Shown piece by piece: positions 1 to 64,000 of a DNA stretch of 64,000 nt. The stretch comes from a virus. Within the stretch, counting starts at the first letter, position 1; every line of letters starts with the position of its first letter. The stretch covers positions 96,001 to 160,000 of the IMG/VR virus record IMGVR_UViG_3300045988_173816. The stretch is one strand, 5' to 3'. The notes under the pieces were generated by a model. That model was not told the DNA's origin, ran no database searches, and saw only the letters and a list, made by a program, of their open reading frames with translations. The translations under genes and the position numbers were made by a program.

Positions 1-935
1 GTGAGTGGTCTACGCGAGAGCAGGAACTTTCAACCTACATTGAGAATTTACGCTCTTACCTAGGTTTAAAAGCTCGCAAAGTGGAACAAACCAAGAAAAC
101 TGATACAGGTACTGAAACTGTTGAGGTAGAAAACCCCAACACCTTTGATAAGCTAGACAATCCAACGTATGATAGTGCGGTATCCTCATGGCTTGAGCTG
201 AAAAAAGTTGAGCCTAGTCCTTATACTTATGCCAACGGTGAAAAGAACCTCGATAAAGTTGTTTCCTATGGGTGGGTTGGCTCAACATACATTGCAAGTA
301 AAGAAAGCGATGCGAAGAGTACAAATGTTCACATTGGTTCAGGAAAATATGAGGATCCAGTCACTTTAGGCACCCCATTTGTTACAAAAATGCAAGATAC
401 ATCAGGTAATTATCAAGATGTTCGAGTGACTGTTACTAAGGTGTTAGTGGGTGATGAAGCCATTAAAGATGTTCAAACCTTTAACGATAAGAACAAAGGC
501 TTTACCAATGTTTCGGACTTGGTTTTAGGTACTGTTCACTTCCAAGTAGAGAACTTGTCTGATAAGGAAATTGAGGTTGACTCTGAGTTTACGTTAGCTG
601 ATCCAGAGCAGAATCTCATTAACCGAACCGGTAATATGTACGGTCTCCCAGAGCGTTCGAAGATTGCAGCACGTGGAACTGCAGAGATGGTCGATTGGTT
701 CAATACTAAGGAAACTAAGACTTTGAATTTAATGTGGGGCAAATCGTTTAACCACAAGCACGAAGCAGTCTATATCAATGCTTTAGGTGATGAGATTTAC
801 GACCAGTATGGACGCAAAATGGAGCGCAATACGAAGAAACTCGTAGAGAACAAAGCCCAAGCAGACCAAAAAGCGTTAGAGCGTTTGGCGAAAGAAGAGC
901 TTGAAGCTCGTAAGAAAGCTGAGTTGGAGGACTAG
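1..935 (+). CDS. hypothetical protein, probably 5'-truncated by the window edge; K/E-rich coiled-coil C-terminus
   Basis: The frame of ORF 81..935 stays open back to nt 3, so GTG-81 need not be the start. No family recognised. Confidence 0.6.
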   Translation, partial: EWSTREQELSTYIENLRSYLGLKARKVEQTKKTDTGTETVEVENPNTFDKLDNPTYDSAVSSWLELKKVEPSPYTYANGEKNLDKVVSYGWVGSTYIASKESDAKSTNVHIGSGKYEDPVTLGTPFVTKMQDTSGNYQDVRVTVTKVLVGDEAIKDVQTFNDKNKGFTNVSDLVLGTVHFQVENLSDKEIEVDSEFTLADPEQNLINRTGNMYGLPERSKIAARGTAEMVDWFNTKETKTLNLMWGKSFNHKHEAVYINALGDEIYDQYGRKMERNTKKLVENKAQADQKALERLAKEELEARKKAELED

Positions 936-938
936 ATT

Positions 939-1367
939 ATGTTTAAACGTAAACAGAAAACCTCTAAACCCAATTCTCTTTCGGTATCCGATACTCAGTA
1001 CGTCAAACAACCAAAAGAACCGTTTTTAAAGCGTTTGGTGTCTTATTTCAAGACTCACAGAAAGACTCGGTTGTTTGTCTTTGGTCTAATTGGTTTAGCT
1101 ATATCCTTGGCTTTACTTTTCGCTTTGTATAAAGTTATCTTGGTAGTGTTAGGAACCATTATGCAGTTTTGGTTCCGATACACTAGTAATGAAATCCTCT
1201 TGTGGGTTTTAACTTTAGTCTGCTTTGCACTCATTTGTGGTTTTTGTTACTTCTTGTGGGTGCGAAGGTCTGAGTACCTTAAAAGAGAAGAGCAAGAAGA
1301 AAAATTAGCAGTGAGCGAAGTCGAAGTAGATGAAGATTGGTTCCAGTCTGATAGTGGTTGGAACTAG
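939..1367 (+). CDS. membrane protein (two TM helices, acidic tail)
   Basis: ATG lies 4 nt after the upstream stop. Hydrophobic stretches LFVFGLIGLAISLALLFALYKVILVVLG and ILLWVLTLVCFALICGFCYFLW. Confidence 0.7.
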   Translation: MFKRKQKTSKPNSLSVSDTQYVKQPKEPFLKRLVSYFKTHRKTRLFVFGLIGLAISLALLFALYKVILVVLGTIMQFWFRYTSNEILLWVLTLVCFALICGFCYFLWVRRSEYLKREEQEEKLAVSEVEVDEDWFQSDSGWN

Positions 1368-1395
1368 GTAGTTTGGAAAGGTGGGTATCTTTCGT

Positions 1396-2116: not shown

Positions 2117-2287
2117 ACCTAACAAGGTATCTTCTTGATAAATCAACGCTTTTGTGCTATACTAGATAAGAAGTAAGTGAAAAACTTCAACTCGGTCAAA
2201 GATGCTTGGTGGTGCTTGCTAGACCGAAAAAGAAAACGAACTCACAATTAAACGGTGCAAGAGAAGTCACGAAAGTGGCTTTTCTTG

Positions 2288-3153: not shown

Positions 3154-3627
3154 ATGGTTGCTCACTATGTAAATGAATTACCAGAGGACTTGCAAGTATT
3201 ATTAGCAATGCGCTCTACATTTCAGGTTTGGTTTGATAACTTTAGGTACTTACAAGAGGTAAGTGTGGAAAATTTTCATGTTGATGGGGTTGATTGGGGT
3301 TGTACTTCTAATACATTTAGTATTACAGTGTTGAGACCTTCTGGACATCCTTTTGTGTCTTTGCATTTCACAGTTGCAGATAACGGCTTAGAATTAACTC
3401 TTGTAGCTCAAAGTTATACCCATGGTAAATTAGTAGACACTAAGATGCTTAAAGGCGTGGCTTTTACGGTGGAAGACTTCAAGGTTCTTCTAAGTGCTAT
3501 ACCTCAAACAGCATATATTTCCATTTTACGTTCTTTACCATTCTTCTTTGCATTGATTGGTTTAGAGTCACAATTCCAAGGGTATCAACATCGTTTTGCA
3601 GCATTAAATGGTTGGATTGAGGGGTAA
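3154..3627 (+). CDS. array-1 small protein (paralog family, function unknown)
   Basis: AAGGAG SD. N-terminal helix with a conserved W/F (LQVLLAMRSTFQVWFDNF), then a beta-like segment SITVLRPSGHPFVSLHFT, as in its neighbours. Confidence 0.85.
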   Translation: MVAHYVNELPEDLQVLLAMRSTFQVWFDNFRYLQEVSVENFHVDGVDWGCTSNTFSITVLRPSGHPFVSLHFTVADNGLELTLVAQSYTHGKLVDTKMLKGVAFTVEDFKVLLSAIPQTAYISILRSLPFFFALIGLESQFQGYQHRFAALNGWIEG

Positions 3628-3633
3628 ATATAA

Positions 3634-4170
3634 ATGGTTCAATCAGATGTAGAAGTATTTAAATTACATAATTTATTTCAAAGAGTTTTGTATAAGTGGT
3701 TGGGGTGTTCTCGATATTTAGATTTTAATATTGAAAAAGAGATTCCTCACTTAACTATATTTGTTAATGGTAACTCATTAGCGGTAGTTTCTTCTCATGA
3801 GAATGGGTTTCCAAGGTGTAGTATATCTTTAAGGAAATTAGTTTCTTGTCCACTTGATTATTGGGAACAAGGGGTTGCTGACTTTACGTTATATTCGAGA
3901 GTTTGTTTTTATGGTAGAGGGGAGCTTCAACATGACTTTAAACGTACTGATATAGGTACTTTAAGTATTGACTGGTATCTTTACATTTCGGATATTTTAG
4001 CACCTTTAAATGAGTCTCAACGATTTGCTTTAGAGTTTACTCTGAAAGAAGTTCTGAAAGAACTAGAAAAAGAACTTGAATATAAACAAAAACAGTATTA
4101 TTCATTAAATACGGATTTTGAGCAATATAAAGGCTTAGAGTTTCAAGAGGGTTTTAAACGTTTAGATTAA
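3634..4170 (+). CDS. array-1 small protein
   Basis: Starts 7 nt after the upstream stop. LHNLFQRVLYKWLG ... LAVVSSHENGFPRCSISL. Confidence 0.85.
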   Translation: MVQSDVEVFKLHNLFQRVLYKWLGCSRYLDFNIEKEIPHLTIFVNGNSLAVVSSHENGFPRCSISLRKLVSCPLDYWEQGVADFTLYSRVCFYGRGELQHDFKRTDIGTLSIDWYLYISDILAPLNESQRFALEFTLKEVLKELEKELEYKQKQYYSLNTDFEQYKGLEFQEGFKRLD

Positions 4171-4197
4171 GATATACTTAAAATTAAAGGACATAAT

Positions 4198-4692
4198 ATG
4201 ACTAGAAATATCGAATTAACAGACTTGTACCAACGACTTAAGTTAGTTGTAAATACTTGGGTTGATTTAATCCCTTTTCAAAACTTTGAATTTAGCTCAG
4301 AGAGTTCGACTTTTGCTTATACTGTAAACTCTAAAGAATTTACTTTAGTAACTTATCGAACTACAGGTTTACCTAGTACAACTCTAGCTATTACAAAGCA
4401 GCCTAAAATAGTCAATGGGGTATCCGCAGGTTTGCTCTTTTCCGCTACATTTTGCTCTTATCGTAATGGTAAAGTAGAGTTTGAGTTTAAAGATTCATCA
4501 CTTGATGTGATTGGTTCTGACTGGTACGAGTTTACTCGACAATTTTATTACCCTATAAGCAATTCACAACGATTAAGTCTTTATGAGTCTTTATTTGATT
4601 TGCAATTGATTTTACAGTATGAACTAAACCGTTTGAACGAAGAGTTCGATCAGTTAATATTCCTTAAGGATTTTAATGGAGGTTTTAAATGA
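4198..4692 (+). CDS. array-1 small protein
   Basis: AAAGGA SD. LYQRLKLVVNTWVDL ... FTLVTYRTTGLPSTTLAIT. Confidence 0.85.
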   Translation: MTRNIELTDLYQRLKLVVNTWVDLIPFQNFEFSSESSTFAYTVNSKEFTLVTYRTTGLPSTTLAITKQPKIVNGVSAGLLFSATFCSYRNGKVEFEFKDSSLDVIGSDWYEFTRQFYYPISNSQRLSLYESLFDLQLILQYELNRLNEEFDQLIFLKDFNGGFK

Positions 4693-5591
4693 TAAACTTA
4701 AAACAATACACAAAAGAACAACGTTTTGCCTTAGTAGCAACTGCTTTGGTTGATACTTGGGAGAAACTTCGACGAGAATTAAACGGACCTGCTACGACTG
4801 AATTTAACGCTGATACCATGATTTTGAACATCGATAATCAAGGTTGCTTTGTAAATGTACTGAGACAGAACTATTTAACTTGGTACACCTTTAGTTTCAC
4901 GTTCAATAAAGATAACAAATTGGCTTTTGCAGTGACTCCGTATGTTAGAAATAACCCTCAATTTAATGAGGTTACACGCGGTATCTTCACGGCTCATAGC
5001 GATTTTGAAAAGTTAGCTTCAGATTTACCTTCTGACTACTTAGCTCCATTTGTAAATAATTTGCTACTTATTTTTAGTGAAGATAACACATGGTCTAAAA
5101 CCTTTAATTATTTCTTATCTAATTCTACTCAGTTTGTTCCTACTACAAAGCAGTTAGCAAAGCGAAAACCAGCTGATAAAGTAAATGTTAGAAAAGAGCT
5201 AAGAACAACTTTTCTCCGCATTTCAGACTTTTATAAGACCTTTTTGCTACATTCTATGTTGGATGAGAAAAGTTACGCAGAAGCAACCTCAACCTCCTTA
5301 TTGACTATCAACAAAGCAGGTCTTTCTTATTCTGTCTTAATTGATAATAAAGCTTACTTTACATTTATGCTTGTACCCACAGATGAGCGAGACTATTATC
5401 TTTATAAACTCTCAAATCAAAATGGAAATTTAGATTCGTTTACTGAAGTTGGGTTGTTTTATGAAGATGCTGATCGTCTTTCAGGCTTAATTTCACGTGA
5501 ATATATGTTAGGGTTCGTTACTGAATTTGAGTCTTTGATAACTAAAGTAGGTCTTTGGTCTGCTTACACAAGTCTTGGTTATGTAAAGTAA
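4689..5591 (+). CDS. array-1 double-length member (two tandem family modules)
   Basis: ATGA overlap with the upstream gene. Module 1 is QRFALVATALVDTWEKL...FVNVLRQNYLTWYTFSFTF. Module 2 is LRTTFLRISDFYKTFLL...SYSVLIDNKAYFTFMLVP. Confidence 0.85.
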   Translation: MINLKQYTKEQRFALVATALVDTWEKLRRELNGPATTEFNADTMILNIDNQGCFVNVLRQNYLTWYTFSFTFNKDNKLAFAVTPYVRNNPQFNEVTRGIFTAHSDFEKLASDLPSDYLAPFVNNLLLIFSEDNTWSKTFNYFLSNSTQFVPTTKQLAKRKPADKVNVRKELRTTFLRISDFYKTFLLHSMLDEKSYAEATSTSLLTINKAGLSYSVLIDNKAYFTFMLVPTDERDYYLYKLSNQNGNLDSFTEVGLFYEDADRLSGLISREYMLGFVTEFESLITKVGLWSAYTSLGYVK

Positions 5592-5601
5592 AGGAGAAAG
5601 C

Positions 5602-6063
5602 ATGTTTCAAACACTAGACAACAGAACACAACTAGCGATTACCATTATGGCAACTGAAAAGGTCTACTCTAATTGGGTGGAAAACTATACGGTGTCTCGA
5701 CCTTTCAAGAGAGATGTTAACGATAAATTTAACCTTTATATTCGCCCAGATGAGTTGACTTTCCATTTATGGAGGAAAGGTAGCGACTGTGCCTTTGCAA
5801 GCATTCTCATGCAACACCAACCTCAGGGTTATTGCTATATTTCTGTAGAGAATTACTTTAGGGGTATCGCTCGTGACACGCTCGACTTGAACAATCCCCA
5901 TGCTACTTTTGATGATTATTTGAGATTAGCAAACAACTTCCCAGAGCAAGCTGTGGAATTAGTGGTTCAAGGATTGTTTAAAGGGTTTGAAACGGTCGGT
6001 TTGCTATCAGAGTTCTCGTACTATGTTGGTGTTGCAACTAATTTGTTGGATTTGAGAGATTGA
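5602..6063 (+). CDS. array-1 small protein
   Basis: AAGGAG SD. TQLAITIMATEKVYSNWVENY ... LTFHLWRKGSDCAFASILM. Confidence 0.85.
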   Translation: MFQTLDNRTQLAITIMATEKVYSNWVENYTVSRPFKRDVNDKFNLYIRPDELTFHLWRKGSDCAFASILMQHQPQGYCYISVENYFRGIARDTLDLNNPHATFDDYLRLANNFPEQAVELVVQGLFKGFETVGLLSEFSYYVGVATNLLDLRD

Positions 6064-6073
6064 GGTGAATACT

Positions 6074-6550
6074 ATGGACGTAACAACAAAACCTTACTAC
6101 AAGTATAAAAAGGACGCGTTTAAGAAACTCTCTGAGACTATTCTTGATATGCTTAAGAGAGTTGAGTCTTTGAAGAATGTTGTTGATTTACAATTTGCAA
6201 CTTATGATGAACTGGAACTCTTTATTGGTTTTTCGGATTCAAAACTTGGTTCGATTGATATTTATTATCTAAACCGAGTCTCATTAGGCACTATTATCCT
6301 ACCTATTTTTGATTATGACCCAATTCGTTTTTATGTGGACCCAGATTTTAGTGATGCTGACTTTTGGATTACTTTGGAAAACAAAGAAGCTAGAGTTGTT
6401 CGAGAAGAGTCACTTGCTTTGTTCAAGTCTTCTCAAAGTTCTTCTGAAATTCGTTCAGATGGTCATGTGATGGCAAATGCTCATACCCTGACAGTTACTT
6501 ACATTGGGTTGGAAGATTCCTCGGTAGACAGTGTTATTTATCGAAGTTAA
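6074..6550 (+). CDS. small hypothetical protein (array-1 neighbourhood)
   Basis: GAGGTG SD overlaps the upstream TGA. ATG-6074 is preferred over the track's GTG-6065. Confidence 0.75.
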   Translation: MDVTTKPYYKYKKDAFKKLSETILDMLKRVESLKNVVDLQFATYDELELFIGFSDSKLGSIDIYYLNRVSLGTIILPIFDYDPIRFYVDPDFSDADFWITLENKEARVVREESLALFKSSQSSSEIRSDGHVMANAHTLTVTYIGLEDSSVDSVIYRS

Positions 6551-6593
6551 CCCTCTCGGCATCTATTAAGGATTTGACCTTTTTGACAATCAA

Positions 6594-6611
6594 AAGGAGC
6601 GATAGCTCCTT
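6594..6611 (+). terminator. weak terminator-like hairpin
   Basis: AAGGAGC-GATA-GCTCCTT. The tail is pyrimidine-rich rather than a clean T-run. Confidence 0.35.
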
Positions 6612-6662
6612 CTCTTGTTCTCTTGGTATCCTAAACGGAGCTTGCTTTTCCTTAGTTTTAAA

Positions 6663-6691
6663 TTGACAAAAACATTTTATTTTGGTATAAT
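6663..6691 (+). promoter_or_regulatory. sigma-A type promoter
   Basis: TTGACA, 17 bp spacer, TGgTATAAT. Confidence 0.75.
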
Positions 6692-6727
6692 AGACTTATT
6701 AAAATAGAAAAAGGAGTTATAAATAAA

Positions 6728-7639
6728 ATGATAGAAAATTGGACAAGATTAACTTATGATTCAAAGTTGAAGTTTATTTTCTCTGCTTTAGTTAAATCTT
6801 GGAAAGAGCTTGGCTCTGTTGAGTCCGAAGAGTTCAAATTAAAGAATGGAACAATACTTGTAAATTCGAAGGGTGTGTATTTGGTGTTGTTACGAGATAC
6901 AGGGTCAATCTTTTTCACACTAACTCTCACTCACTCAGAGAATGAATGTGTACAAGTTACTTTAACACCACATCGGTATCGTCACCCAGATTTTAAAAAT
7001 TCTGTGGTATTAGATTTAGTTGAACTTACTGATTACGAAAAATTTGTTTCTCTTTTGGATAAGAAACAAGTAGACGCTTTAATTATGAATTGTGGTACCG
7101 ATTTGTTCAAGGAAATTCAATATTGGAACAACGTTTATACCACTCATCTTTCTAATGCTGTTTCTGATTACTTAGATGAAATTCAAATAAGTCAGAGACA
7201 GAATAGAAATATTGAAGATGTTGAGTTGGAACTTAGTTTTGCTTTTTCTCGCTTGACTCGTCTGTATGTAGACTGGTTATGGGGTTCTAAGGAGGGTAAA
7301 CTCGATGGTGAGAGCAAAGTAGCTGATACGGAGTTCTCAAGTTTGCTTATCTCTAATGAGCGTTTGGTTTTCCAAACTAAGTTTAATGAAGTAAGTAGTT
7401 ATACCTTTGAATTGCGCCCTCAAGGTGTAGGGTATGGTCATTTGGGTTATTTCTCTCTTGCAGATGACAAGAAATATTTGACTACCTTTGGAGTTTACTT
7501 AGGTGACTTTAAAGAAGGTTCCGTTTTAGTTTCTTCTATATCCAAAGAACATCAACTTTTGTTCTTGCAAGAATTGGAGCTTTGCATTGTATCTCTTGGT
7601 TTGTGGGGTGAATATTATCGCCCTAGTCAAGCTCTTTAA
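6728..7639 (+). CDS. array-1 double-length member
   Basis: AAGGAG SD. Module 1 is LKFIFSALVKSWKEL...VYLVLLRDTGSIFFTLTLT. Module 2 is LSFAFSRLTRLYVDWLWG...LVFQTKFNEVSSYTFELRP. Confidence 0.85.
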   Translation: MIENWTRLTYDSKLKFIFSALVKSWKELGSVESEEFKLKNGTILVNSKGVYLVLLRDTGSIFFTLTLTHSENECVQVTLTPHRYRHPDFKNSVVLDLVELTDYEKFVSLLDKKQVDALIMNCGTDLFKEIQYWNNVYTTHLSNAVSDYLDEIQISQRQNRNIEDVELELSFAFSRLTRLYVDWLWGSKEGKLDGESKVADTEFSSLLISNERLVFQTKFNEVSSYTFELRPQGVGYGHLGYFSLADDKKYLTTFGVYLGDFKEGSVLVSSISKEHQLLFLQELELCIVSLGLWGEYYRPSQAL

Positions 7640-9613: not shown

Positions 9614-11956
9614 ATGGTGCATTTAAAAGTATTTGAGGCCTTTGCAGGAGTAGGTTCTCAACACATGGCTTTGAGGAATTTAGGTGTTGATTATGAGGTT
9701 GTAGGGGTATCTGAGATTGATAATTTCGCCCATCAGTCTTATGAAGCTATTCACGGAGAAACTAAGAACTTTGGAGACATTTCAAAGTTGCAACCTGAGG
9801 ATTTACCAGACTTTGACTTGTTTACTTACTCTTTCCCTTGTTTCACAGGAGACTCTTTAGTATTTGTAAAGGAAAAAGGATATGTTCCGATTAAGGATAT
9901 TTCTGTAGGTGATTTGGTTTTAACTCACACAGGGGAGTATAAAGAGGTTACTGCTCATTATAATCAAGGGGTAAAACCTATTACAGAAGTATCTACGATG
10001 TTGTCGTCAACTATAAAGACAACCGCTAATCATCAATTTTATGTACGTACTAAAATAAAAGATACTTCTAATAGTTGTGGTTTTTATTTTACACAACCAT
10101 ATTGGAAAGTGGCGGAAGATTTACAGAAATCTGACTATGTGGGTTTTCCAGTAAATTCTGAATCTAAATTACCGACTTGGGAGGGTATTCTTTATACGTG
10201 GTCTGATGGTAGAAAACCTCGTTTAAAGAATAAAATTAAAGATAAATTAACAGATGTTCGATTTTGGTGGTTAATTGGTCGATATATTGCAGATGGTTGG
10301 GTTCGAAGTCAAGGAGGTATTGTTTTAGGTATTGGTAATTCTAAGTTACCTTTAGTTCAAAATCAATTAGCGGGTATTTACAATTATTCAGTTTCGGAAG
10401 AAGGTTCAGTTTCTAAGGTTCATATACCAGATAAGGAGTTAGAAAACTTCTTAGAATCAGTAGGTAAAGGTGCATCTAATAAGGTACTTCCTTATGCTTG
10501 GTTAGATTTACCTGTAAACTATTTACAAGCTCTAGTTGAAGGTTATTTAAGTGGGGACGGTTACGTTCAAGGTACTAGAATTGTAGCTAGTTCTACAAGT
10601 CAATCCTTAATATTAGGTATGGCTCAAGCTATCATGAAGGTTTATAAACGACCCGTAAAAATATATTCTAATAAATTACGTAGTAAACCTCATATAATAG
10701 AGGGTAGATTGATTAAAGAAAATCCTAGTTGGAGTTTAGCTTTTACTAAAGAAGCTCGTAAACATGATCGCTCTTTTTATGAGGATGATTTTGTTTGGGG
10801 TCCAGTACGTTCTGTGGTTTTATCAGAAAATAAAGAATATGTTTACGATATTAGTGTAAAAGATAATCACTCTTTCACAGTTCAAAACTGTATTGTTCAT
10901 AACTGCACAGATTTAAGTTCTGCAGGAAAACAAAGAGGGTTTGAAAAGGGTTCAGGAACGTCCTCTTCCTTGTTGTGGGAGTGTCAACGTATTATTGAAG
11001 GTAAGAAACCAAAAGCCTTGCTCTTAGAGAATGTAAAAGCTCTTACAAGTGTTAAATTTAGAGATGGTTTTCACTCTTGGTTGTCTTTTTTAAGAGGTTT
11101 AGGTTACATGAACTACTATGGGGTTCTCAATGCCAAAGACTTTGGACTTCCTCAGAATAGAGAACGAGTATTTGTTGTTTCAATTTTAGGAAAGCACAAA
11201 CCATATCGTTTTCCAAATGGTTTTGATGATGGTTCTACAATGGCTTCTCTGTTGGGTAGTGAGTTAGACACGAAGAAGTGGCACAAGCAGTACAATATAG
11301 ATCGATTTACTTACGAATTGCGGGATAAAGGGATTGTGCATTACCTTGGTCGCTTCAATGTTCCTATTGACTATAAGTTAGATAAGTTGAAAGAGCAATG
11401 TTTCGAAGATATAGGTCTTTCAACTGTTAAAGAGTCAATAGGAATGCGCACGCAGTGTTTGTTTCCAACAGGAAAAGTAAGCTGCATGTTAGCTTCGGAC
11501 TATAAGTACCCTAAAACAGTAGTTGAGGGTATAGGTTGTGAAGTTCCGTCTAAGTTGTACCCTTCGGATGCAAGTGATCCTCTAGCTCGTCCTTTTGTGG
11601 AATATGAGAGAGGTTTGACCTCTACAAGAGAAGAACTAGCAAAAGACCCAAGTGTATTGTGGTTGTCGGAAAAAACTGCAAACAAACCACAAGGGTTGTT
11701 TAACTTAGCTTTAATGTTGTCTGAGGATCAAGTAGAAGAGCTAGAACCTCTAAGTGGATTTTACTCTATGCGGTATCTGACTGCAGGGGAATGTTGGAAA
11801 TTTATGGGGTTCTCTTATGATGATTATCAAAAAGCAAAAGCAGTAGGTTTATCTGATTTACAACTTTATAAACAAGCGGGTAACTCGATTGCAGTTCCTT
11901 GTTTGGAAGTTTTGTTTAAAGAGATTTATACTTCGCTTGAATTAGAACGTGATTAA
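9614..11956 (+). CDS. C5-cytosine DNA methyltransferase of the SPbeta/SPR phage (multispecific) type, interrupted by an intein
   Basis: Motif I FEAFAGVGS; motif IV YSFP|C TDLSSAGK split by the intein; ENVKAL; QNRERVFVVS; LYKQAGNSIAVP. The N- and C-termini resemble M.SPRI as I remember it (NFGDVSK..LPEFDL; RLTPLECFRLQ..QLYKQAGNSI). Confidence 0.9.
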   Translation: MVHLKVFEAFAGVGSQHMALRNLGVDYEVVGVSEIDNFAHQSYEAIHGETKNFGDISKLQPEDLPDFDLFTYSFPCFTGDSLVFVKEKGYVPIKDISVGDLVLTHTGEYKEVTAHYNQGVKPITEVSTMLSSTIKTTANHQFYVRTKIKDTSNSCGFYFTQPYWKVAEDLQKSDYVGFPVNSESKLPTWEGILYTWSDGRKPRLKNKIKDKLTDVRFWWLIGRYIADGWVRSQGGIVLGIGNSKLPLVQNQLAGIYNYSVSEEGSVSKVHIPDKELENFLESVGKGASNKVLPYAWLDLPVNYLQALVEGYLSGDGYVQGTRIVASSTSQSLILGMAQAIMKVYKRPVKIYSNKLRSKPHIIEGRLIKENPSWSLAFTKEARKHDRSFYEDDFVWGPVRSVVLSENKEYVYDISVKDNHSFTVQNCIVHNCTDLSSAGKQRGFEKGSGTSSSLLWECQRIIEGKKPKALLLENVKALTSVKFRDGFHSWLSFLRGLGYMNYYGVLNAKDFGLPQNRERVFVVSILGKHKPYRFPNGFDDGSTMASLLGSELDTKKWHKQYNIDRFTYELRDKGIVHYLGRFNVPIDYKLDKLKEQCFEDIGLSTVKESIGMRTQCLFPTGKVSCMLASDYKYPKTVVEGIGCEVPSKLYPSDASDPLARPFVEYERGLTSTREELAKDPSVLWLSEKTANKPQGLFNLALMLSEDQVEELEPLSGFYSMRYLTAGECWKFMGFSYDDYQKAKAVGLSDLQLYKQAGNSIAVPCLEVLFKEIYTSLELERD
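9839..10903 (+). mobile_element. intein (355 aa) with LAGLIDADG homing endonuclease domain
   Basis: Starts CFTGDSLV and ends IVHN, followed by the +1 Cys. LAGLIDADG-like blocks LIGRYIADGWV and LVEGYLSGDGYV. Removal restores FPC-TDLS. Confidence 0.85.
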
Positions 11957-12502: not shown

Positions 12503-12657
12503 GTTAAATGAGTGAGAAGAATTTTAAAACTGTAAACCAAGATGAAGTGAATCCTCAAGTAGTTAAATTTATTTAGAAGTATAAAAAAGTAAAACATGAT
12601 AAGACTGAAATAGTCTTGGATTGTATAGAAGGTAGTCGCAGTCGCCTCAACTCTGAT

Positions 12658-12681
12658 TCTTGTGCAGTATACTGCACAAGA
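12658..12681. promoter_or_regulatory. 24-bp perfect palindrome (operator candidate or T-less hairpin)
   Basis: TCTTGTGCAGTA|TACTGCACAAGA. No T-run follows. Lies about 150 bp upstream of adhesin gene 1. Confidence 0.4.
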
Positions 12682-12836
12682 ATAAGGTGAGAAACAACTT
12701 ATGTTGGAAACTTTAATTTTGTTAAGAAATTAGAGAACTGTAATTGCTTGATTTCTTTGAGTTTAAATGTTAAAATAAATTTATACTTGACTATGAGTTT
12801 TATTATATTAAAAAATAAAAGAAAGTAGAGATTAAA

Positions 12837-39386: not shown

Positions 39387-39406
39387 ATAGAATTGAGGTA
39401 AAAACA

Positions 39407-39685: not shown

Positions 39686-39706
39686 GTAAAGAAAGTAGGT
39701 AAATAT

Positions 39707-48588: not shown

Positions 48589-48589
48589 T

Positions 48590-49042
48590 ATGGTTAAACT
48601 ATTTAAAACAAAAGAAGAGCGTGATTTAGCGTTCGTTTCAAATATGTGGGAGAGACTTAAGCGAAAGGATAAATTACGGGAAGTTTTGAGTTATTCTCAG
48701 ACACCTTATGAGATTAAAGCTTACTTATCTGACCCAGAGTTGAATAAAAGTTTCCGTTATATTGGTTGGGGTCACAAGTACCAAGTCCTTTATTTGGCGG
48801 TAGATGAGACTTATAATTTAGTTTTGACAACATCATGCTCAGGGTATCAAGCTTGGTTTCCGATTTCCGTAATTTATTCTGAGTTCTTCCCTCAACATGG
48901 CACTTTGAGAAGACGTATGGAAAAGTTGGCAAGTCGGTATCTTTTTGAGTTCAACCAATTATTGAGTGAAGTTTCTCCTTTGGAGTTGAAGGTTTATAGT
49001 TCTAACTTAAATCATGTTATTTTAAAGTTTGACTGCTTATAA
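48590..49042 (+). CDS. hypothetical protein, paralog of 48151..48588
   Basis: AAAGGTGG SD. YQVLYLAVDETYNLVLTTSCSGYQAWFPISVIYSEFFPQHGTLRRRMEKLASRY. Confidence 0.85.
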   Translation: MVKLFKTKEERDLAFVSNMWERLKRKDKLREVLSYSQTPYEIKAYLSDPELNKSFRYIGWGHKYQVLYLAVDETYNLVLTTSCSGYQAWFPISVIYSEFFPQHGTLRRRMEKLASRYLFEFNQLLSEVSPLELKVYSSNLNHVILKFDCL

Positions 49043-52249: not shown

Positions 52250-52645
52250 ATGTCAGAAAAACAAGCGAAATACACAAAGAAAGACTTTCAAGTAGGGCAG
52301 ACTGTTTATATTGAACAAATTGGAGCTTCAGTACATTACTTAAAAGATACTATAGGTAAAGTAACTGAGGAAATAATTGAGAAAATTGGGGTCAAGTTCG
52401 TAACGACCAACAAAGGTCGGTATCGTTTAGATGATGGCTTGGATGATTGTGATACAAGTAAGGATTTTTTACTTCACTTAACGGAACAAGAAGCTAAGGA
52501 TAGTGCATTAGAGCGAAAATTGAAGAAAGAAATTTTATCTAAAGTAAAGTTTGATTTAGTTAAAACTTTAACTTTAGAGGAACTACAAACGATAGGATCA
52601 ATTTTAACTGATGCAGAAGAACGCTTGAACGGAGGTCTTAAATGA
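52250..52645 (+). CDS. hypothetical protein
   Basis: 131 aa. First gene of a 5-gene operon. Confidence 0.75.
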   Translation: MSEKQAKYTKKDFQVGQTVYIEQIGASVHYLKDTIGKVTEEIIEKIGVKFVTTNKGRYRLDDGLDDCDTSKDFLLHLTEQEAKDSALERKLKKEILSKVKFDLVKTLTLEELQTIGSILTDAEERLNGGLK

Positions 52646-60592: not shown

Positions 60593-60922
60593 ATGAGTAA
60601 GCAACTTATTATTTCCTTTGATGTTTCCTCTATACCAATCACAAGTGAGTTTTTAGCTTTATCTTTCTTACACGCATTTGAGAAAGAACTTAAAGAACCT
60701 ATTCCGAAATTGGAGAGCTTTAGAGTTACTTCAGTCTACAAAGTATTAACTTGGTTAGAGTTTCATTACTTAAATGATTTATTTTTAACAGAAGACGAGC
60801 GGTATCACTTACGTTACGTACACTTTATGTTATACAATCTTAACCGAAGTGGTGCAATAACTGAGGTTCATTTTCGAGTCTTGCAAAACGATTTTACACA
60901 TGAAATTACAATTAGAAAGTGA
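60593..60922 (+). CDS. hypothetical protein (109 aa)
   Basis: Starts 6 nt after the upstream stop. Confidence 0.7.
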   Translation: MSKQLIISFDVSSIPITSEFLALSFLHAFEKELKEPIPKLESFRVTSVYKVLTWLEFHYLNDLFLTEDERYHLRYVHFMLYNLNRSGAITEVHFRVLQNDFTHEITIRK

Positions 60923-63917
60923 GAATGATTTGACACAAGAAACAGAATACTACAAAGCTATAAACTGGAACGCCATTGAGGATGTAGTCGATAAGGCGAC
61001 TTGGGAGAAACTAACTGAACAGTTTTGGTTAGACACTCGTATTCCTTTATCTAATGATTTAGATGATTGGCGCAGATTATCTGAGAAAGAGCGAGACTTG
61101 GTAGGTAAAGTATTTGGTGGGTTGACTTTGCTTGACACTTTGCAGTCGGTGGATGGGGTATCTGCAATAAAACCTGATGTTCGCACTCAACATGAAGAAG
61201 CAGTGTTGAACAATATTGAGTTTATGGAGTGTTATACGAAAGACCATAAACTTCTAACGATTGATAGAGGTTGGGTTCCTGTAAATCAGATTAAAGAAGG
61301 AGACATTGTTTTAGCTTATAATAAAGAGACTGAGACAACTCGATTTGAGAGAGTAAGTCAAACTTCTAGTCATTTTGCGGAGTCTATTTACCATATTCAT
61401 GCGAAGAATTTTGATTTGAGAGTTTCAGGCGGTCACCGTATGTTATTTGAGAAAGCCCAGAACTCTCGTTACCGTAAAGATTCGTGGGATACTTATACTT
61501 CTCATGTATTAGAAGCGCGAGAGTTTGCAGATTTACCTAAAAACCCCTCTAGACGTTTGGTGTTAGCTCGCTCCTTTGAATCTGAAAAGAAGATTCCTTT
61601 AAGCTTACAGGAACAATTCTATATTCTATTAAGAGAGCGTTCCCACATTAACCCTACAGATCAGATTAGAATCAATCGCTATATAGAGAATAAAGGTAAG
61701 GTTCGAGCAAACACTTGTACAGTTATATTTACTTTTCAGTCAGAAGATAAGATTCAAAATTTGTATAATTTGTGTGAGGCTTTAGGTTATTCAGTTAAAT
61801 TAAGTTCCTTAGAGGTGAGGTCTGAGACTTATAAAAGATTTCTGGTATCAATTCCTTTGGAGGATTATATAAAGAACCACTATGACATTTTAACTTACCA
61901 AGACTTCTTTTCTTTAGATGACTTTGATAGTAATAAAGCAGATTCTTTTATTCAATATTTAACTTATTGGTGTACTCGACAAGAAGTTGGAGTTGAGGGT
62001 ACTTTGAGGAGAGTTCTCTACTATACACGAAGTTATGAAGATTGGAATTTTGTACAAGCACTTGCAACTTTAGCGGGTCATGCTTTCAGAAAAATGATTA
62101 CAGATTCCACATCTAAGTTATCGAAAGCTAAATTGTACACAGTTGGAATCTGTATGACTGAGAAACAGAACTATCTGCAGTTGACAAGAGTAAAAACAGA
62201 TATACTTGAAGGAGAGCAAGTTTACGGTATCGAGGTTCCGTCTAGTTTCTTGGTGGTCTTAGCGGGAGATAAACCTGTAATTTCAGGCAACTGTGTCCAC
62301 GCTAAATCTTACTCATCAATTTTCTCCACTTTGAACACAAAATCAGAAATTGAAGAAATTTTTGAGTGGACTGCAAACAATCAACACCTCCAAAAGAAAG
62401 CTGAAATTATCAAGCGTATTTATGACACAGGAACGCCTTTACAGAAGAAAGTCGCAAGTGTGTTTTTAGAGTCTTTCCTTTTCTATTCAGGTTTCTTTAC
62501 ACCTTTGTGGTACTTAGGAAACAATAAACTTCCGAATGTAGCTGAGATTATTAAGCTTATTATTCGAGATGAGTGTCTGACAAAAGACCAAGAGGTACTA
62601 ACCCCTAAAGGTTGGGTATCCGTTGCGGATATTCGCCTTCAAGACTTGGTTTTGCAATTCGATAGAGAAACTCGCAGAACAAACTTCGCCCCAGTTTTAA
62701 CAATTTCCACAGACTATGCTCCTAAGCTTTACAATTTCAAATCTCAACTTGGTTATGTCGATTTGACTTGTAGCCCTAAGCATAGATTGATTCGGAAAGC
62801 CATTACAAGTGACGGTTTAGTAACTCGAACTGCTGAGACAAATTTCGGACAAACTTCTTCTTGGTTACATTCAACCCCTTTGCTTACAAAGGTTGACGGA
62901 GCAACTTCGCTAACGGATTGGGAGAAGTTCTACCTCCTTATGTCTCGTTATGGTACACTCACTCAACAAGCTCAACAGATTGATTTAGTTGTAAGTAGTG
63001 GTAAGGCGGATGAGATTGAACGCTTTAAAGCTCTATTTGACCGTTTAGGTTTAGACTATGTAGCTTATAATTACAAATACGGAAACGGCAATATGATTCG
63101 TATTTCTGATGTTCCTAATCAGGGTATCGACATAAACAAGCTCAAATTGCTACCTAAAAGAAATTTAAACGAAGTTACTTTAGAGTGGTGCCAAGATTAT
63201 CTGAATACTTTATTTGAGTGGGTAGGTTCAAATGAGTGTGAAACTTCTCTCAACTACTATTCAACACATAAGCAGTACATTGATTATGTTCAAAGCTTGT
63301 GTACACTGGTTGGGTATAAAACAAGAATTTCTGTTGTAAAAGGTAGTGACCCTTATACAGTTGAGGGTGTTAAGAACTACTGTCTTCACGTTATTAAAAA
63401 CTGTTCACTCACTGCAGGAACCTCAGTTGTTCGTACTGAGGTTAAAGGTGCGCAAGTCTACGGTATCCAAGTTCCGTCAGGGTATTTGGTAACACGTGGA
63501 AAAGGTGGTTCTGTAGTTATAACAGGTAATAGTGTCCACGGAACCTACATTGGTTACAAGTTCCAATTAGCCTTTAATGAGTTGTCTGAGGAAGAGCAAG
63601 AAGAGTTAAAAGCTTGGACTTATGATTTACTTTACGAACTTTATGAGAATGAAGAAAAATACACCGAAGAGCTATATGATGATATTGGTTGGACAGAAGA
63701 AGTGAAGACTTTCCTTCGTTACAATGCTAACAAAGCACTTATGAATTTAGGACTTGACCCTCTGTTCCCAGAGAGTGCAGAAGATGTCAATCCAATTATC
63801 ATGAATGGTATTTCGACAGGAACTTCTAACCATGATTTCTTCTCACAAGTTGGGAATGGGTATCTGTTGGGGCAAGTGGAAGCTATGACCGATGAGGATT
63901 ACACTGTTGGTTTATAA
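60900..63917 (+). CDS. nrdF: ribonucleotide reductase beta subunit (NrdF/R2) interrupted by two inteins. Mature protein about 332 aa.
   Basis: Exteins are AINWN..FWLDTRIPLSNDL..HEEAVLNNIEFME | CVHAKSYSSIFSTL...IIKLIIRDE | SVHGTYIGYKFQ. Both EXXH diiron-ligand motifs are present once the inteins are removed. The start could be TTG-60930. Confidence 0.95.
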   Translation: MKLQLESENDLTQETEYYKAINWNAIEDVVDKATWEKLTEQFWLDTRIPLSNDLDDWRRLSEKERDLVGKVFGGLTLLDTLQSVDGVSAIKPDVRTQHEEAVLNNIEFMECYTKDHKLLTIDRGWVPVNQIKEGDIVLAYNKETETTRFERVSQTSSHFAESIYHIHAKNFDLRVSGGHRMLFEKAQNSRYRKDSWDTYTSHVLEAREFADLPKNPSRRLVLARSFESEKKIPLSLQEQFYILLRERSHINPTDQIRINRYIENKGKVRANTCTVIFTFQSEDKIQNLYNLCEALGYSVKLSSLEVRSETYKRFLVSIPLEDYIKNHYDILTYQDFFSLDDFDSNKADSFIQYLTYWCTRQEVGVEGTLRRVLYYTRSYEDWNFVQALATLAGHAFRKMITDSTSKLSKAKLYTVGICMTEKQNYLQLTRVKTDILEGEQVYGIEVPSSFLVVLAGDKPVISGNCVHAKSYSSIFSTLNTKSEIEEIFEWTANNQHLQKKAEIIKRIYDTGTPLQKKVASVFLESFLFYSGFFTPLWYLGNNKLPNVAEIIKLIIRDECLTKDQEVLTPKGWVSVADIRLQDLVLQFDRETRRTNFAPVLTISTDYAPKLYNFKSQLGYVDLTCSPKHRLIRKAITSDGLVTRTAETNFGQTSSWLHSTPLLTKVDGATSLTDWEKFYLLMSRYGTLTQQAQQIDLVVSSGKADEIERFKALFDRLGLDYVAYNYKYGNGNMIRISDVPNQGIDINKLKLLPKRNLNEVTLEWCQDYLNTLFEWVGSNECETSLNYYSTHKQYIDYVQSLCTLVGYKTRISVVKGSDPYTVEGVKNYCLHVIKNCSLTAGTSVVRTEVKGAQVYGIQVPSGYLVTRGKGGSVVITGNSVHGTYIGYKFQLAFNELSEEEQEELKAWTYDLLYELYENEEKYTEELYDDIGWTEEVKTFLRYNANKALMNLGLDPLFPESAEDVNPIIMNGISTGTSNHDFFSQVGNGYLLGQVEAMTDEDYTVGL
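61230..62291 (+). mobile_element. NrdF intein 1 (354 aa)
   Basis: Starts CYTKDHKLLTIDRGWVPV and ends VISGN, followed by the +1 Cys. Large enough for an endonuclease domain, but no clear LAGLIDADG or HNH motif was seen. Confidence 0.85.
62574..63530 (+). mobile_element. NrdF intein 2 (319 aa), paralogous to intein 1
   Basis: Starts CLTKDQEVLTPKGWVSV and ends VVITGN, followed by the +1 Ser. The C-block AQVYGIQVPSGYLV aligns with EQVYGIEVPSSFLV of intein 1. Confidence 0.85.
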
Positions 63918-63941
63918 AATGACTTAAATTAAAGTTTCCCC

Positions 63942-63970
63942 TTGACAACTCCTCTAATTTGTGCTATACT
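63942..63970 (+). promoter_or_regulatory. sigma-A type promoter (reads out of the window)
   Basis: TTGACA, 17 bp spacer, TGcTATACT. Confidence 0.7.
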
Positions 63971-64000
63971 ATAAACATACTTGGCATAAGGGTGTTCCTT

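Follow-up and report, generated by a model that had tools for sequence, protein, structure and literature searches.

SGGTATC, a strand-polar heptamer maintained by selection in a family of giant plasmid-like elements of oral streptococci

Selection maintains a short asymmetric word, the heptamer SGGTATC (S = G or C), as a DNA-level polar signal that is independent of coding throughout a family of uncultivated, plasmid-like elements of oral mitis-group streptococci. The window in which the word was analyzed (64,000 nucleotides, positions 96,001 to 160,000 of IMG/VR record IMGVR_UViG_3300045988_173816) belongs to a member of this family and comes from a human oral metagenome contig of 284,100 bp. 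Few sequence signals organize whole bacterial chromosomes; Chi and KOPS/SRS belong to them, and to our knowledge the described polar oligomers of these kinds are all owned by the cell and read by host enzymes. Here, the same formal properties are found in stronger form and are private to very abundant, uncultivated giant elements of human oral streptococci.

Form and occurrence of the motif in the window

An exact recount gave 94 copies of GGTATC on the + strand of the window, with a mean spacing of 685 bp, and five copies of the reverse complement. An earlier, sequence-only reading had claimed about 93 forward copies; the excess is real and stronger than it claimed, two of its forward positions were 10 too high (the copies start at 5863 and 7712 rather than at 5873 and 7722), and its five reverse copies were exact in number and position. 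The forward copies start at 179, 983, 1384, 1763, 2126, 3047, 3581, 3974, 4419, 4980, 5863, 6625, 6975, 7712, 8990, 9706, 11772, 12438, 12989, 14445, 15444, 16964, 17736, 18566, 19533, 20026, 20135, 20887, 22050, 22205, 22878, 23327, 23682, 23977, 24514, 25053, 25195, 26151, 26869, 27379, 29064, 30143, 30352, 31250, 32602, 33431, 33702, 34107, 35398, 35665, 36162, 39019, 39276, 39612, 39993, 40750, 40838, 41815, 42841, 43444, 44492, 45218, 45759, 45999, 46603, 47170, 47968, 48843, 48936, 49511, 50365, 51742, 52419, 52909, 53895, 54337, 55032, 55469, 55854, 56519, 57056, 57408, 57991, 58317, 59056, 59771, 60801, 61157, 61844, 62226, 62615, 63123, 63462, and 63859. The reverse copies, read as GATACC on the + strand, start at 4812, 16523, 16989, 17684, and 43884 (span, 4812 to 43889).

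The strand polarity of the hexamer is 95% in the window, and the strand that carries it is the G-rich strand and the sense strand of essentially every gene; all convincing open reading frames of ≥100 amino acids (aa) lie on the + strand. The sister hexamers GGTATT, GGTATA, and GGTATG numbered 44, 25, and 12. The base 3′ of GGTATC was mostly C (33) or T (32) rather than G (15) or A (14), a bias that had been noticed before, and the base 5′ of it was G in 41 copies, C in 30, T in 17, and A in 6. The real core of the motif is SGGTATC, a heptamer that usually has C or T as its next base; 71 of the 94 copies carry it in full.

Copies occur in all three codon phases (31, 25, and 30) and in intergenic DNA (8), in keeping with the earlier claim, at a density of 1.40/kb in noncoding and 1.48/kb in coding sequence, and no position preference within genes was found. 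The impression of roughly one copy per gene turned out to be a by-product: because the spacing is set by distance, copies per gene track gene length, with nine in a gene of 1571 aa and seven in one of 1005 aa.

The copies at 2126, 3047, 6625, 18566, and 47968 had been assigned to intergenic DNA and terminator stems. All five are intergenic, and a hairpin was found only at 18566, where folding of the RNA over ±45 nt places the motif (18566 to 18571, +) within the 3′ arm of a stem-loop that resembles a terminator and leads into a run of Ts, downstream of a gene for a 1902-aa surface protein. The copy at 2126 to 2131 (+) directly precedes the −35 hexamer of a promoter of the sigma-A type, TTGATA-N17-TATACT (repeat families D8 and D10); none of the remaining intergenic copies (1384, 3047, 6625, 26151, 39019, and 47968, all +) stands in a convincing terminator stem. 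A terminator component was ruled out, with a hairpin at one of the eight intergenic copies, as was a promoter or other two-part element, since no second conserved block was found at a fixed distance from the motif.

Controls for coding and composition

Synonymous-codon shuffles within genes predicted 29.9 ± 4.2 copies of GGTATC (maximum of 41 in 500 shuffles) and 8.9 ± 2.8 copies of GATACC, compared with the 94 and 5 present, and codon-order shuffles predicted 19.8 ± 3.3 copies of GGTATC. Coding bias accounts for a skew of about 3.4:1 but not for the roughly 3- to 5-fold excess. Among the hexamers of the window, GGTATC ranked first for strand skew, for excess over a maximal-order Markov model, and for excess over the synonymous shuffle (z = 11.8), and at the heptamer level CGGTATC occurred 30 times versus 2.9 expected and GGGTATC 41 times versus 7.9. 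The k-mer check that the sequence-only reading had proposed, with a Markov null and a codon-preserving shuffle, thus put GGTATC on top, and the shuffles reproduced neither its count nor its skew. Codon or dipeptide bias was ruled out as the cause by the two kinds of shuffle, and the use of all phases and the noncoding copies agree with the earlier claim to that effect. Avoidance of GATACC was not significant in the window (5 versus 8.9 expected); pooled over 156 kb from two lineages, 10 copies were found versus 16.9 expected (P about 0.04).

Distribution among relatives, hosts, and other genomes

The relatives measure 175 to 477 kb (the family is put at about 200 to 480 kb), and the reference relative, of 255.5 kb, is apparently circular, as judged from gene order. 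A surface protease is 85 to 87% identical to S. mitis and S. infantis genes. Two element-specific proteins had no match among 185,579 species genomes, 20 kb of the window had no megablast match in PLSDB plasmids or GenBank phages, and tblastn of two proteins against phages returned remote matches only.

Across the family, 3723 forward and 116 reverse copies were counted at 111 overlapping loci (2.08 Mb, redundant), i.e., 97% forward, and the polarity was kept in every relative sampled. The forward-to-reverse ratio ranged from 19:1 in the window to 32:1 in the family, and copies were spaced at about one per 450 to 700 bases. In lineages down to 55 to 60% protein identity, GGTATC was still a leading polar over-represented hexamer, ranking first in the two closest lineages and second and third in the two most divergent. 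The mitis-group chromosomes differ: SGGTATC occurred 216:2 (forward to reverse) in 156 kb of element versus 141:72 in 1.54 Mb of chromosome, a 15-fold higher density in the element, and the hexamer reached 0.35/kb on the sense strand of the same 1.54 Mb, with a skew of 3.7:1, versus 1.4 to 2.4/kb in the element. Low-GC tuf-gene loci from unrelated genomes had 0.39/kb, and other giant oral elements, which were retrieved as negative controls by GyrA alignment and include none of the family studied, had 2 to 3 forward versus 1 to 3 reverse copies per 21 kb. The recount on hosts and relatives that had been suggested earlier therefore shows a motif and polarity kept by the relatives, with no enrichment in host chromosomes or unrelated low-GC genomes. 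The signal is restricted to the element family, and its reader is therefore probably encoded by the element.

Spacing and conservation of individual sites

Gaps between copies in the window were more even than random, with a coefficient of variation (CV) of 0.63 versus 0.98 (0 of 5000 simulations as low), and only 4 were shorter than 150 bp, versus 18 expected. Three data sets were likewise underdispersed, with mean spacings of 653, 492, and 431 bp, CVs of 0.60, 0.62, and 0.47, and 6, 9, and 4 pairs less than 150 bp apart, versus 26, 27, and 14 expected. Even spacing is what a coverage requirement predicts.

The sites themselves are also conserved: of 27 that could be aligned at 80% nucleotide identity, 22 were retained, compared with about 26% by chance, and at 68% identity the figures were 23 of 50 and about 10%. 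As these alignments show, individual sites are under purifying selection and are kept at 3 to 5 times the chance rate. Even spacing and site conservation together would be equally expected of any function that needs coverage, including a Chi-like or translocase-loading function. Compensatory gain of sites near lost ones looked plausible in two genes and was unsupported over 33 ortholog pairs. A comparison of the C-terminal 2.7 kb of the IgA1-protease gene was meant to show creation of the motif by synonymous change; the four sites found there in the element's gene also occur in the closest host genes, all four in two of these genes and three in the other two, which makes the comparison uninformative.

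Genome organization and the origin-like region

Neither the genes, the GC skew, nor the motif changes orientation over at least 131 kb (51%) of the 255.5-kb relative, the iteron region included. The sequence-only reading had looked to a flip of the motif at an origin or terminus; none was seen over this distance, even across the iteron-rich region. GC skew is +0.08 to +0.22 throughout on the strand bearing the motif, and from this skew alone the + strand would be the leading strand. Because all genes are co-oriented with the motif, the polarities of transcription and replication are inseparable.

In the relatives, the iteron region is a noncoding stretch of 2.7 kb with 4 to 5 forward copies and 0 reverse copies in every lineage, and it is origin-like. 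A noncoding tandem array of seven degenerate units of 127 to 150 bp follows the iterons at a distance of about 4 kb, just ahead of a gene for a UvrD/PcrA-like helicase; within the units, only G-GGGTATC and a downstream AAATTTT are invariant. If forks leave the iterons rightwards, the array is on the strand and on the side expected of a first priming or loading zone. We infer from the sequence the direction and the mode of replication and the strand that templates discontinuous synthesis. Because the motif occurs in all codon phases, in intergenic DNA, in the 2.7-kb noncoding origin-like region, and in the noncoding tandem array, the signal acts below the level of translation.

The family resembles the Inocles (PMC12340149) and the 224-kb Streptococcus “plasmid-like element” of Yahara et al. 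(PMC7782811) in its source (human saliva), its Streptococcus host, its size (>200 kb), its absence from isolate genomes, its LPXTG surface proteins, its many ORFans, its partition-type gene, and its being called viral by automatic tools. Like the Inocles, it consists of giant circular extrachromosomal oral Streptococcus elements found in no isolate genome, with circularity drawn from the gene order of one relative. The Inocles have an origin and a terminus marked by GC skew, with ORF orientation switching at both, as well as the marker InoC and a gyrase (Kiguchi et al. 2025; PMC12340149). In the part of the present family that was sampled, by contrast, no two-replichore layout, InoC, or gyrase was seen: a single orientation and a positive GC skew extend over 131 kb (51%) of the 255.5-kb relative, and Replic_Relax (PF13814), the N-terminal domain of the approximately 454-aa InoC, was not among the Pfam hits in the ~150 kb covered, a comparison made by domain only. 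A polar oligomer is reported in neither paper (PMC12340149 and PMC7782811).

A possible priming site

We tentatively favor the reading that the copies are regularly spaced initiation or loading sites of discontinuous synthesis, recognized by an element-encoded primase or primosome component. With genes, GC skew, and motif all pointing one way, the G-rich sense strand that bears the motif would be the template of discontinuous DNA synthesis, either of the lagging strand in unidirectional vegetative replication or of the second strand on DNA displaced by nick-initiated (rolling-circle or conjugative) replication, and the evenly spaced SGGTATC would be the word recognized. By analogy with T7 and its cryptic 3′ C, 5′-GGTATC-3′ would template a primer 5′-pppAUACC. 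A primase site was among the hypotheses of the sequence-only reading, and it best fits the 450- to 700-bp spacing, the element specificity, the strand, and the array near the origin-like region; against it, no primase gene was found in ~150 kb.

The G-rich strand suits a lagging-strand template if forks move with transcription, a direction that is itself read from the sequence. The spacing of the motif is comparable to the length of Okazaki fragments, and primase sites are predicted on the template of discontinuous synthesis. In theta plasmids, ssiA or pas sites lie just downstream of the origin, as the array lies just downstream of the origin-like region; ssi and sso signals, unlike the motif, are single, structured loci. 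Known primase sites also differ from the motif in length, being trinucleotides, or five bases in T7 (3 to 5 nt), and in having no reported genome-wide enrichment, and we know of no described primase that needs a 6- to 7-nt site or drives genome-wide enrichment of its own site. The T7 gp4 sites on the lagging-strand template are 5′-GTC-3′ and 5′-TGGTC-3′, with a cryptic 3′ C (PMC9198812 and PMC2978363), the longer form being 5′-(G/T)(G/T)GTC in general, and host-type Firmicute DnaG uses d(CTA) and d(TTA) (PMC2978363). The motif contains neither d(CTA) nor d(TTA); its ATC end would be compatible with primase sites such as the GTC of T7, which likewise end in TC with a cryptic C.

The search for a reader covered ~150 kb, about half of the genome. 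The elements encode a PcrA/UvrD-type helicase (a 735-aa SF1 UvrD-like protein in which no nuclease domain was detected), a RecJ-like exonuclease, a FEN-type 5′-3′ exonuclease, RNase H, and a protein with sigma-70 region 4. Helicases of the PcrA type power the replication of plasmids and ICEs that starts from a nick. The search for a primase and helicase that had been proposed earlier thus yielded the helicase, while no primase (TOPRIM/DnaG, AEP/PrimPol, or gp4-like) was found by Pfam, PHROGs, and NCBIfam in roughly 150 kb of the family. Four conserved ORFans had no phmmer match in the PDB, and a conserved 413-aa protein beside the iterons gave a poor AlphaFold model (pLDDT 59) with no Foldseek match at E ≤ 0.001. 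The literature searched contained no report of GGTATC as a phage or polar motif, and no described Chi, KOPS/SRS, uptake, or primase signal in it matched, in line with the sequence-only reading, which had recognized none.

Other readings of the signal

We consider it rather unlikely that SGGTATC is Chi-like, i.e., read in single-stranded form by an element-encoded helicase-nuclease that then passes from degradation to repair, so that the motif marks the element's own DNA as “self” and protects broken forks and ends; if the enzyme entered from the other side, the recognized word would be the complement, GATACCS. At 6 to 7 nt, the motif has a length typical of known Chi sites (5 to 8 nt); it is asymmetric, over-represented 3- to 5-fold or more (94 versus 30 expected), spread over the whole replicon, and borne by the G-rich strand that is co-oriented with genes. 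Chi sites have been summarized as short, asymmetric, over-represented, biased to the G-rich strand, and co-oriented with genes (PMC3384302). The candidate host-type Chi GCGCGTG occurs 0:1 in 156 kb of element versus 75:21 in 1.54 Mb of host, and without it the element would therefore need another way to survive host RexAB; the UvrD-like helicase and several exonucleases are encoded by the element. The host chromosome, however, is not enriched in the motif (0.35/kb versus 1.4 to 2.4/kb for the hexamer, 15-fold for the heptamer; 141:72 in 1.54 Mb), as it would be for a host Chi, and host RexAB/AddAB is therefore unlikely to be the reader, in which respect the Chi-like attenuator proposed by the sequence-only reading is unlikely. 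About 150 kb of the family yielded no protein resembling AddA/AddB or RecB/RecC, and the helicase lacks a detected nuclease domain. Unlike Chi, to which it is unrelated in sequence, the motif is confined to an extrachromosomal family; it is denser (one per 0.45 to 0.7 kb, high for a 7-mer Chi), more even, and better conserved site by site, and strong site conservation and regular spacing are not known Chi features. The host's own Chi or KOPS was ruled out, as host chromosomes show no SGGTATC enrichment or skew and the candidate host words differ.

It is unlikely that the motif orients a translocase in the manner of KOPS/SRS or the TRS of Streptomyces TraB, such that a pump encoded by the element and serving conjugation, segregation, or packaging would load at SGGTATC and so be set in a single direction over the full length of the molecule. 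The skew of 95% in the window and 97% in the family is of the level seen for KOPS/SRS (above about 85 to 90%, on the leading strand, here assigned from GC skew only), a single polarity extends over at least 131 kb, the seven-copy array could serve as a loading zone, and reverse copies are slightly below expectation (10 versus 16.9, P about 0.04). KOPS/SRS are likewise polar 7- to 8-mers with a skew of >90% that are read on DNA irrespective of coding, and the Lactococcus KOPS, GAAGAAG, is an asymmetric heptamer of the same length (PMC3384302); the related 224-kb Streptococcus element is reported to have remote homologues of type IV secretion proteins (PMC7782811). Against this reading, the motif is not the signal of host FtsK, as the host has no SGGTATC skew, and it is not purine-rich, unlike the heptamers that are candidate streptococcal KOPS (PMC3384302). 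It also shows no inversion at an origin or convergence at dif, as KOPS do, over at least 51% of the apparently circular relative (131 of 255.5 kb, iterons included), its density is 3 to 20 times above that of known KOPS/SRS, avoidance of the reverse orientation is weak, and the ~150 kb examined yielded no FtsK/HerA-like ATPase.

A signal in transcription or RNA, whether read on the nontemplate strand by an elongation, antitermination, or pause factor or as GGUAUC in mRNA by an RNA-binding protein or nuclease, would fit the strand data equally well, every gene being co-oriented, and we nevertheless consider it quite improbable. The motif is always on the sense strand, the family has the sigma-70 region 4 protein, and the window encodes a phage ProQ-C-like protein (52250 to 52645, +). 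Its density, however, is the same in intergenic DNA, including DNA upstream of promoters and downstream of terminators, and in the 2.7-kb iteron region and the noncoding array; there is no position preference within genes and no second promoter-like element at a fixed distance, and we know of no elongation signal that recurs every 500 to 700 nt inside genes.

The DNA uptake sequences of Neisseria (DUS) and Pasteurellaceae (USS) resemble the motif in occurring about once per kb, within genes in every frame as well as between genes, and with a spacing more regular than chance. They differ in occurring in both orientations, compared with 19:1 to 32:1 here, and in being enriched in the chromosomes of species with sequence-specific uptake, whereas the host chromosome is not enriched in SGGTATC; we know of no uptake specificity in streptococci.

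Restriction avoidance is evident in the window DNA, in which GATC, CAATTG, and ATTAAT are depleted. Such avoidance clearly acts on this DNA, and coding bias alone gives a skew of about 3.4:1 (3.7:1 in the host), yet it is very improbable that the pattern has no function, either as a side effect of codon or dipeptide usage or of a bias in mutation or repair that differs between the strands or as one-sidedness selected for escape from Type III restriction (as with the EcoP15I sites of phage T7, where the enzyme needs inversely oriented sites): this reading is largely refuted by the shuffles, which miss the count (z about 15) and the skew, by site conservation 3 to 5 times above prediction from flanking sequence, and by the host comparison, the phases are used equally and noncoding copies stand at full density, and Type III evasion would cover the missing orientation but not the 5- to 15-fold excess of the other, with reverse copies barely depleted.

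A private address code

We speculate that SGGTATC may be a private 7-nt “address code,” whereby an element-encoded primase or primosome, or a Chi-recognizing nuclease, restricts its action to DNA that bears the word on one strand at intervals of ~500 nt, and the circle of 250 kb or more is a single unidirectional unit. If so, the DNA synthesis or end protection of the element would be insulated from the host chromosome, and the motif would be the first polar signal of the Chi/KOPS class that is private to a replicon. A primase as its reader would be the first with a long site that reshaped a whole genome, proteins included, and a primase or Chi-type nuclease with a private code would represent a new principle of self-recognition for a mobile replicon. 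In practice, the motif offers a handle on replication or movement, through the unidirectional layout and two candidate start zones (the iterons and the array), a defined oligonucleotide with which to fish for the reading protein, and a sequence signature for fragments of the family in metagenomes and for recent insertions, which lack it.

Motif-free stretches in the window

The longest motif-free gap (2857 bp; 36168 to 39018, +) contains an IS200/IS605-type TnpB gene (37210 to 38451, +; Pfam OrfB_IS605 and Cas12f1-like_TNB; NCBIfam guided_TnpB), which is probably a recent insertion that does not yet carry the motif; when two TnpB proteins were looked up for further copies, only the window copies came back. 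The second-longest gap (2066 bp; 9712 to 11771, +) coincides with an intein, with Hint and LAGLIDADG domains, in a C5 cytosine methyltransferase gene (9614 to 11956, +; Pfam Intein_splicing, LAGLIDADG_3, and DNA_methylase). The TnpB insertion and the intein are thus free of the motif, and unrelated insert genes carry it at the same density.

Excess and form of the motif

A recount placed 94 copies of GGTATC on the + strand of the window and five of GATACC; the sequence-only reading had reported 93 and five, and its list of positions was correct overall, with two entries off by ten and one copy absent. The window has a G+C content of 34.9%, its GC skew is positive in every 4-kb bin, and all of its credible open reading frames (ORFs) lie on the + strand, so coding by itself should yield strand-skewed words, and the counts call for controls. 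When synonymous codons were permuted gene by gene, which preserves both the proteins and the codon usage, the expectations were 29.9 ± 4.2 GGTATC and 8.9 ± 2.8 GATACC; with codon order permuted, the expectation was 19.8 ± 3.3 GGTATC. Coding accounts for a skew of about 3.4:1 but not for the GGTATC count (z about 15); the earlier claim that coding bias is insufficient thus withstood a codon-preserving shuffle, which reproduced neither the count nor the skew.

GGTATC ranked first among all hexamers in strand skew and in its excess over both a maximal-order Markov model and the synonymous shuffle. Among 7-nt words in the window, the signal was concentrated in two, CGGTATC with 30 copies (2.9 expected) and GGGTATC with 41 (7.9 expected), and a logo of 279 sites showed S (G or C) at −1, G or T at −2, and a pyrimidine at +1, with no signal further out. 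The copies were spread over the three codon phases (31, 25, and 30, with 8 more in intergenic DNA), had no favored position inside genes, and were equally dense in non-coding (1.40 per kb) and coding (1.48 per kb) DNA. Among the copies previously cited as lying in terminator stems, only that at 18566 sits in a terminator-like hairpin.

A trait private to one family of elements

Each locus sampled in each relative shows the motif with its polarity, typically with 33 to 49 forward and 0 to 3 reverse copies per 21 kb, and 111 loci (2.08 Mb in all, with partial redundancy) gave a family total of 3723:116. Across four lineages, which diverge to 55 to 60% protein identity, GGTATC is strongly polar and within the top three over-represented hexamers, ranking first in two. 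Low-GC bacteria (535 kb around tuf) had 0.39 forward and 0.18 reverse copies per kb, and mitis-group streptococci and allies (80 loci, 1.54 Mb) had 0.35 sense and 0.095 antisense copies per kb. For SGGTATC, the counts were 216:2 in the element (156 kb) versus 141:72 in the host sample (1.54 Mb), a 15-fold difference in density. Because these controls lack the enrichment, the comparison with unrelated genomes of similar composition, named in the sequence-only reading as a possible refutation, does not refute the signal.

The window corresponds to positions ~108,341 to 172,340 of a 284,100-bp human oral metagenome contig (ENA ERZ989696, k127_141467). Dozens of relatives of 175 to 477 kb are present in IMG/VR and metagenome collections, among them ODVO01000004.1 (255,703 bp), IMGVR_UViG_3300008756_000002, and BNJT01000212.1 (477,247 bp); GenBank phages and PLSDB plasmids gave no close match to the window, and two window proteins had no relative among 185,579 species (one genome per species). 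In a 255,541-bp relative, two marker genes lie 70 kb apart, as they do in other relatives, only when the sequence is read as circular, from which we infer a circular genome.

Of the elements described in the literature, those that come closest are the Inocles, which are giant and plasmid-like and occur in oral Streptococcus (PMC12340149), and a “plasmid-like element” of 224 kb from Streptococcus (PMC7782811). The relative BNJU01003638.1, from a BNJ*-series assembly, possibly comes from the same study as the 224-kb element, the paper on which mentions the BNJU prefix (PMC7782811). Neither an InoC domain nor gyrase was found in the family sequence examined, and the two-replichore architecture described for Inocles was not seen over 131 kb of the 255.5-kb relative; the family is only a possible member of the Inocles. 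Four other giant oral IMG/VR elements (L199, L200, L214, and L225; 238 to 263 kb, 28 to 32% G+C, with bacterial-type GyrA) are strongly GC-skewed, but none shows an excess of GGTATC or a polar hexamer comparable to it; they may be the gyrase-bearing Inocles proper. In these controls, whose genes are co-oriented, GGTATC had 2 to 3 forward versus 1 to 3 reverse copies per 21 kb. A polar word is reported neither in the Inocle paper (PMC12340149) nor in the earlier oral long-read study (PMC7782811), and full-text literature searches for GGTATC returned no report.

Over-represented words with a strand polarity are a known class of signal. The known ones belong to the cell, whereas SGGTATC belongs to a mobile element; it is also far denser, more polar, and regularly spaced, and it keeps one orientation throughout half of the genome (131 kb).

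Spacing and conservation of sites

Spacing of GGTATC in the window is under-dispersed (coefficient of variation of 0.63 versus 0.98 for random placement), with 4 gaps shorter than 150 bp versus 18 expected, and the pattern was repeated in two further data sets. When the window lineage was compared with a relative of 80% nucleotide identity, 22 of 27 alignable sites were kept while their flanks varied (chance, ~26%), and segments unique to one of these two genomes had the motif at its normal density. For the two main lineages, compared over 33 ortholog pairs at 68% nucleotide identity, 23 of 50 sites were kept exactly (chance, ~10%), and nearby replacement of lost sites was no more frequent than expected. 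The reverse orientation was weakly avoided (10 versus 16.9 expected; P about 0.04).

The two longest motif-free gaps of the window correspond to a TnpB insertion sequence and to an intein. A gene for a 413-aa TnpB-family RNA-guided nuclease (37210-38451) lies inside the longest gap; GGTATC occurs twice in a second such gene (454 aa, 46327-47691), suggesting that this one was inserted earlier. A C5 DNA methyltransferase gene (9614-11956) is interrupted by an intein with Hint and LAGLIDADG domains. An intein is also present in the 1005-aa class I ribonucleotide reductase small subunit, NrdF (60900-63917), in which Ribonuc_red_sm matched in three stretches and the Hint matches were weak, and the gene after NrdF in a relative (1066 aa) may encode the large subunit with an intein.

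Non-coding copies and genome architecture

Relatives carry a 2.7-kb non-coding, origin-like region (L056:2840-3550 in IMGVR_UViG_3300008474_000001; L054:4639-4958) ~31 kb beyond the left end of the window. It contains ~20 iteron-like repeats of TTTGTC(A/C)TAAA at 21-bp spacing, a 17-fold GAGGTYT tandem, three copies of the 19-mer GAGGAACGCCCAAYTCCGT, and 4 to 5 forward and 0 reverse copies of GCGGTATCC. This region is a candidate replication origin or centromere, and four independent IMG/VR contigs or assemblies end at it. A non-coding tandem array of seven degenerate 127- to 150-bp units (L056:7510-8620) lies ~4 kb to its right, directly upstream of the UvrD/PcrA-like helicase gene; G-GGGTATC and an AAATTTT ~15 nt downstream are all that is invariant among its units. 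The array was seen in the window-like lineage and is not obvious in the G lineage. Because the motif is kept in both non-coding regions, any translational explanation is excluded, and the heptamer itself is the constrained element.

Gene orientation, GC skew, and motif orientation are unchanged across the iteron region and the whole 131 kb (51%) of the 255.5-kb relative, so the flip at an origin or terminus that the sequence-only reading had proposed to look for does not occur there. The element is not built as two equal replichores, and replication would be unidirectional if the iterons are the vegetative origin.

Possible function of the motif

SGGTATC is a polar heptamer acting at the level of the DNA, and it is selected, evenly spaced, private to the element, and placed on the G-rich sense strand of a giant replicon with unidirectional organization. 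The polar signals known or proposed for the host are of other kinds, namely, purine-rich KOPS candidates and the Lactococcus-type Chi GCGCGTG, which is polar in the host sample (75:21 in 1.54 Mb), is probably the host Chi, and is not used by the element (0:1 in 156 kb). These differences, together with the lack of enrichment in the host chromosome, argue for an element-encoded reader of the motif.

We tentatively propose that the copies mark, at regular intervals, sites of priming or primosome loading on the strand that templates discontinuous synthesis. They would lie on the lagging-strand template of unidirectional replication or, equally, on the strand displaced by nick-initiated replication or transfer. 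Such a role would be in keeping with the Okazaki-scale, under-dispersed spacing and strong per-site conservation, with a motif array lying a short way downstream of the origin-like region, and with the PcrA-type helicase, FEN, and RNase H that the element encodes. By analogy, the form of the motif may also fit, as the T7 gp4 sites 5′-GTC and 5′-TGGTC have a cryptic C. Weighing against priming, no primase was detected in ~150 kb of the family, and we know of no precedent for so long a primase site.

It is less probable that a helicase-nuclease encoded by the element reads the motif as a private Chi-like signal, and somewhat less probable again that the motif orients or loads a translocase. A signal read during transcription or in mRNA is inseparable by strand from the replication readings, but it fits poorly with the full motif density in non-coding, probably untranscribed DNA, and we consider it doubtful. 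That the motif has no function, or serves restriction evasion only, is largely refuted and very improbable. A function other than these is also possible.

Gene content and other features of the element

The window has host-type sigma-A promoters and encodes at least three C5 DNA methyltransferases and one N6/N4 DNA methyltransferase, a FEN-type exonuclease, RNase H, NrdF with inteins, two TnpB proteins, many ORFans, and giant surface proteins of the YSIRK/LPXTG type. Flanking regions in relatives encode a RecJ-like DHH protein, an actin-like partition protein, a 735-aa UvrD/PcrA-like helicase, a sigma-70-type protein, a J-domain protein, GmrSD_N, an antigen I/II adhesin, and an IgA1 protease. 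The large surface proteins are a YSIRK-type protein of 1902 aa with C-terminal repeats (window 12837-18545), a 1571-aa protein with PEKP repeats (window 19023-23738), and the adhesin and protease (L005:21970-23018 and L151:5141-10786). The IgA1 protease is 85 to 87% identical to genes on the chromosomes of S. mitis and S. infantis, which identifies the host as a mitis-group Streptococcus. The closest host protease genes carry the motif at unusually high density (4 to 6 in 2.7 kb) and have GGTATC sites in common with the element; both features hint at gene exchange between element and chromosome.

Near the origin-like region, a domain scan of A5, an alignment of family loci (L151, L069, L054, L044, L017, and L025 regions), detected sigma-70 region 4, GmrSD_N, J-domain, and DUF2325 alignment-wide rather than in individual ORFs. 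An uncharacterised block (L307:10671-20639, in ODVO01000004.1), ~20 kb rightward of the region equivalent to the window, holds eleven co-oriented ORFs of 125 to 529 aa, ten of which (152 to 528 aa) were scanned and gave zero Pfam or PHROG matches. An IS605-orfB-II RNA (strong Rfam match, 150 bits; window 12595-12741, +) is flanked by a 174-aa ORF and by the gene for the 1902-aa surface protein, and neither of the window's TnpB genes adjoins it.

In the window, small ORFs (~100 to 300 aa) of no known function form many neighboring pairs of diverged paralogs (3154-7639, 25104-25952, 35093-36034, 39371-39985, and 48151-49042); BLAST links neighbors only, and the pattern looks like repeated local tandem duplication. 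Several words are depleted in the window: GATC is strongly avoided (AGATC, 9 versus 49 expected; GATCT, 6 versus 56; AGATCT, 0 versus 19), as are CAATTG (4 versus 31), ATTAAT (4 versus 27), CTGGT (18 versus 69), and TCTGG (14 versus 48), and runs of A and T are rarer too. This depletion probably reflects avoidance of restriction, for example, by the DpnII-type systems of streptococci.
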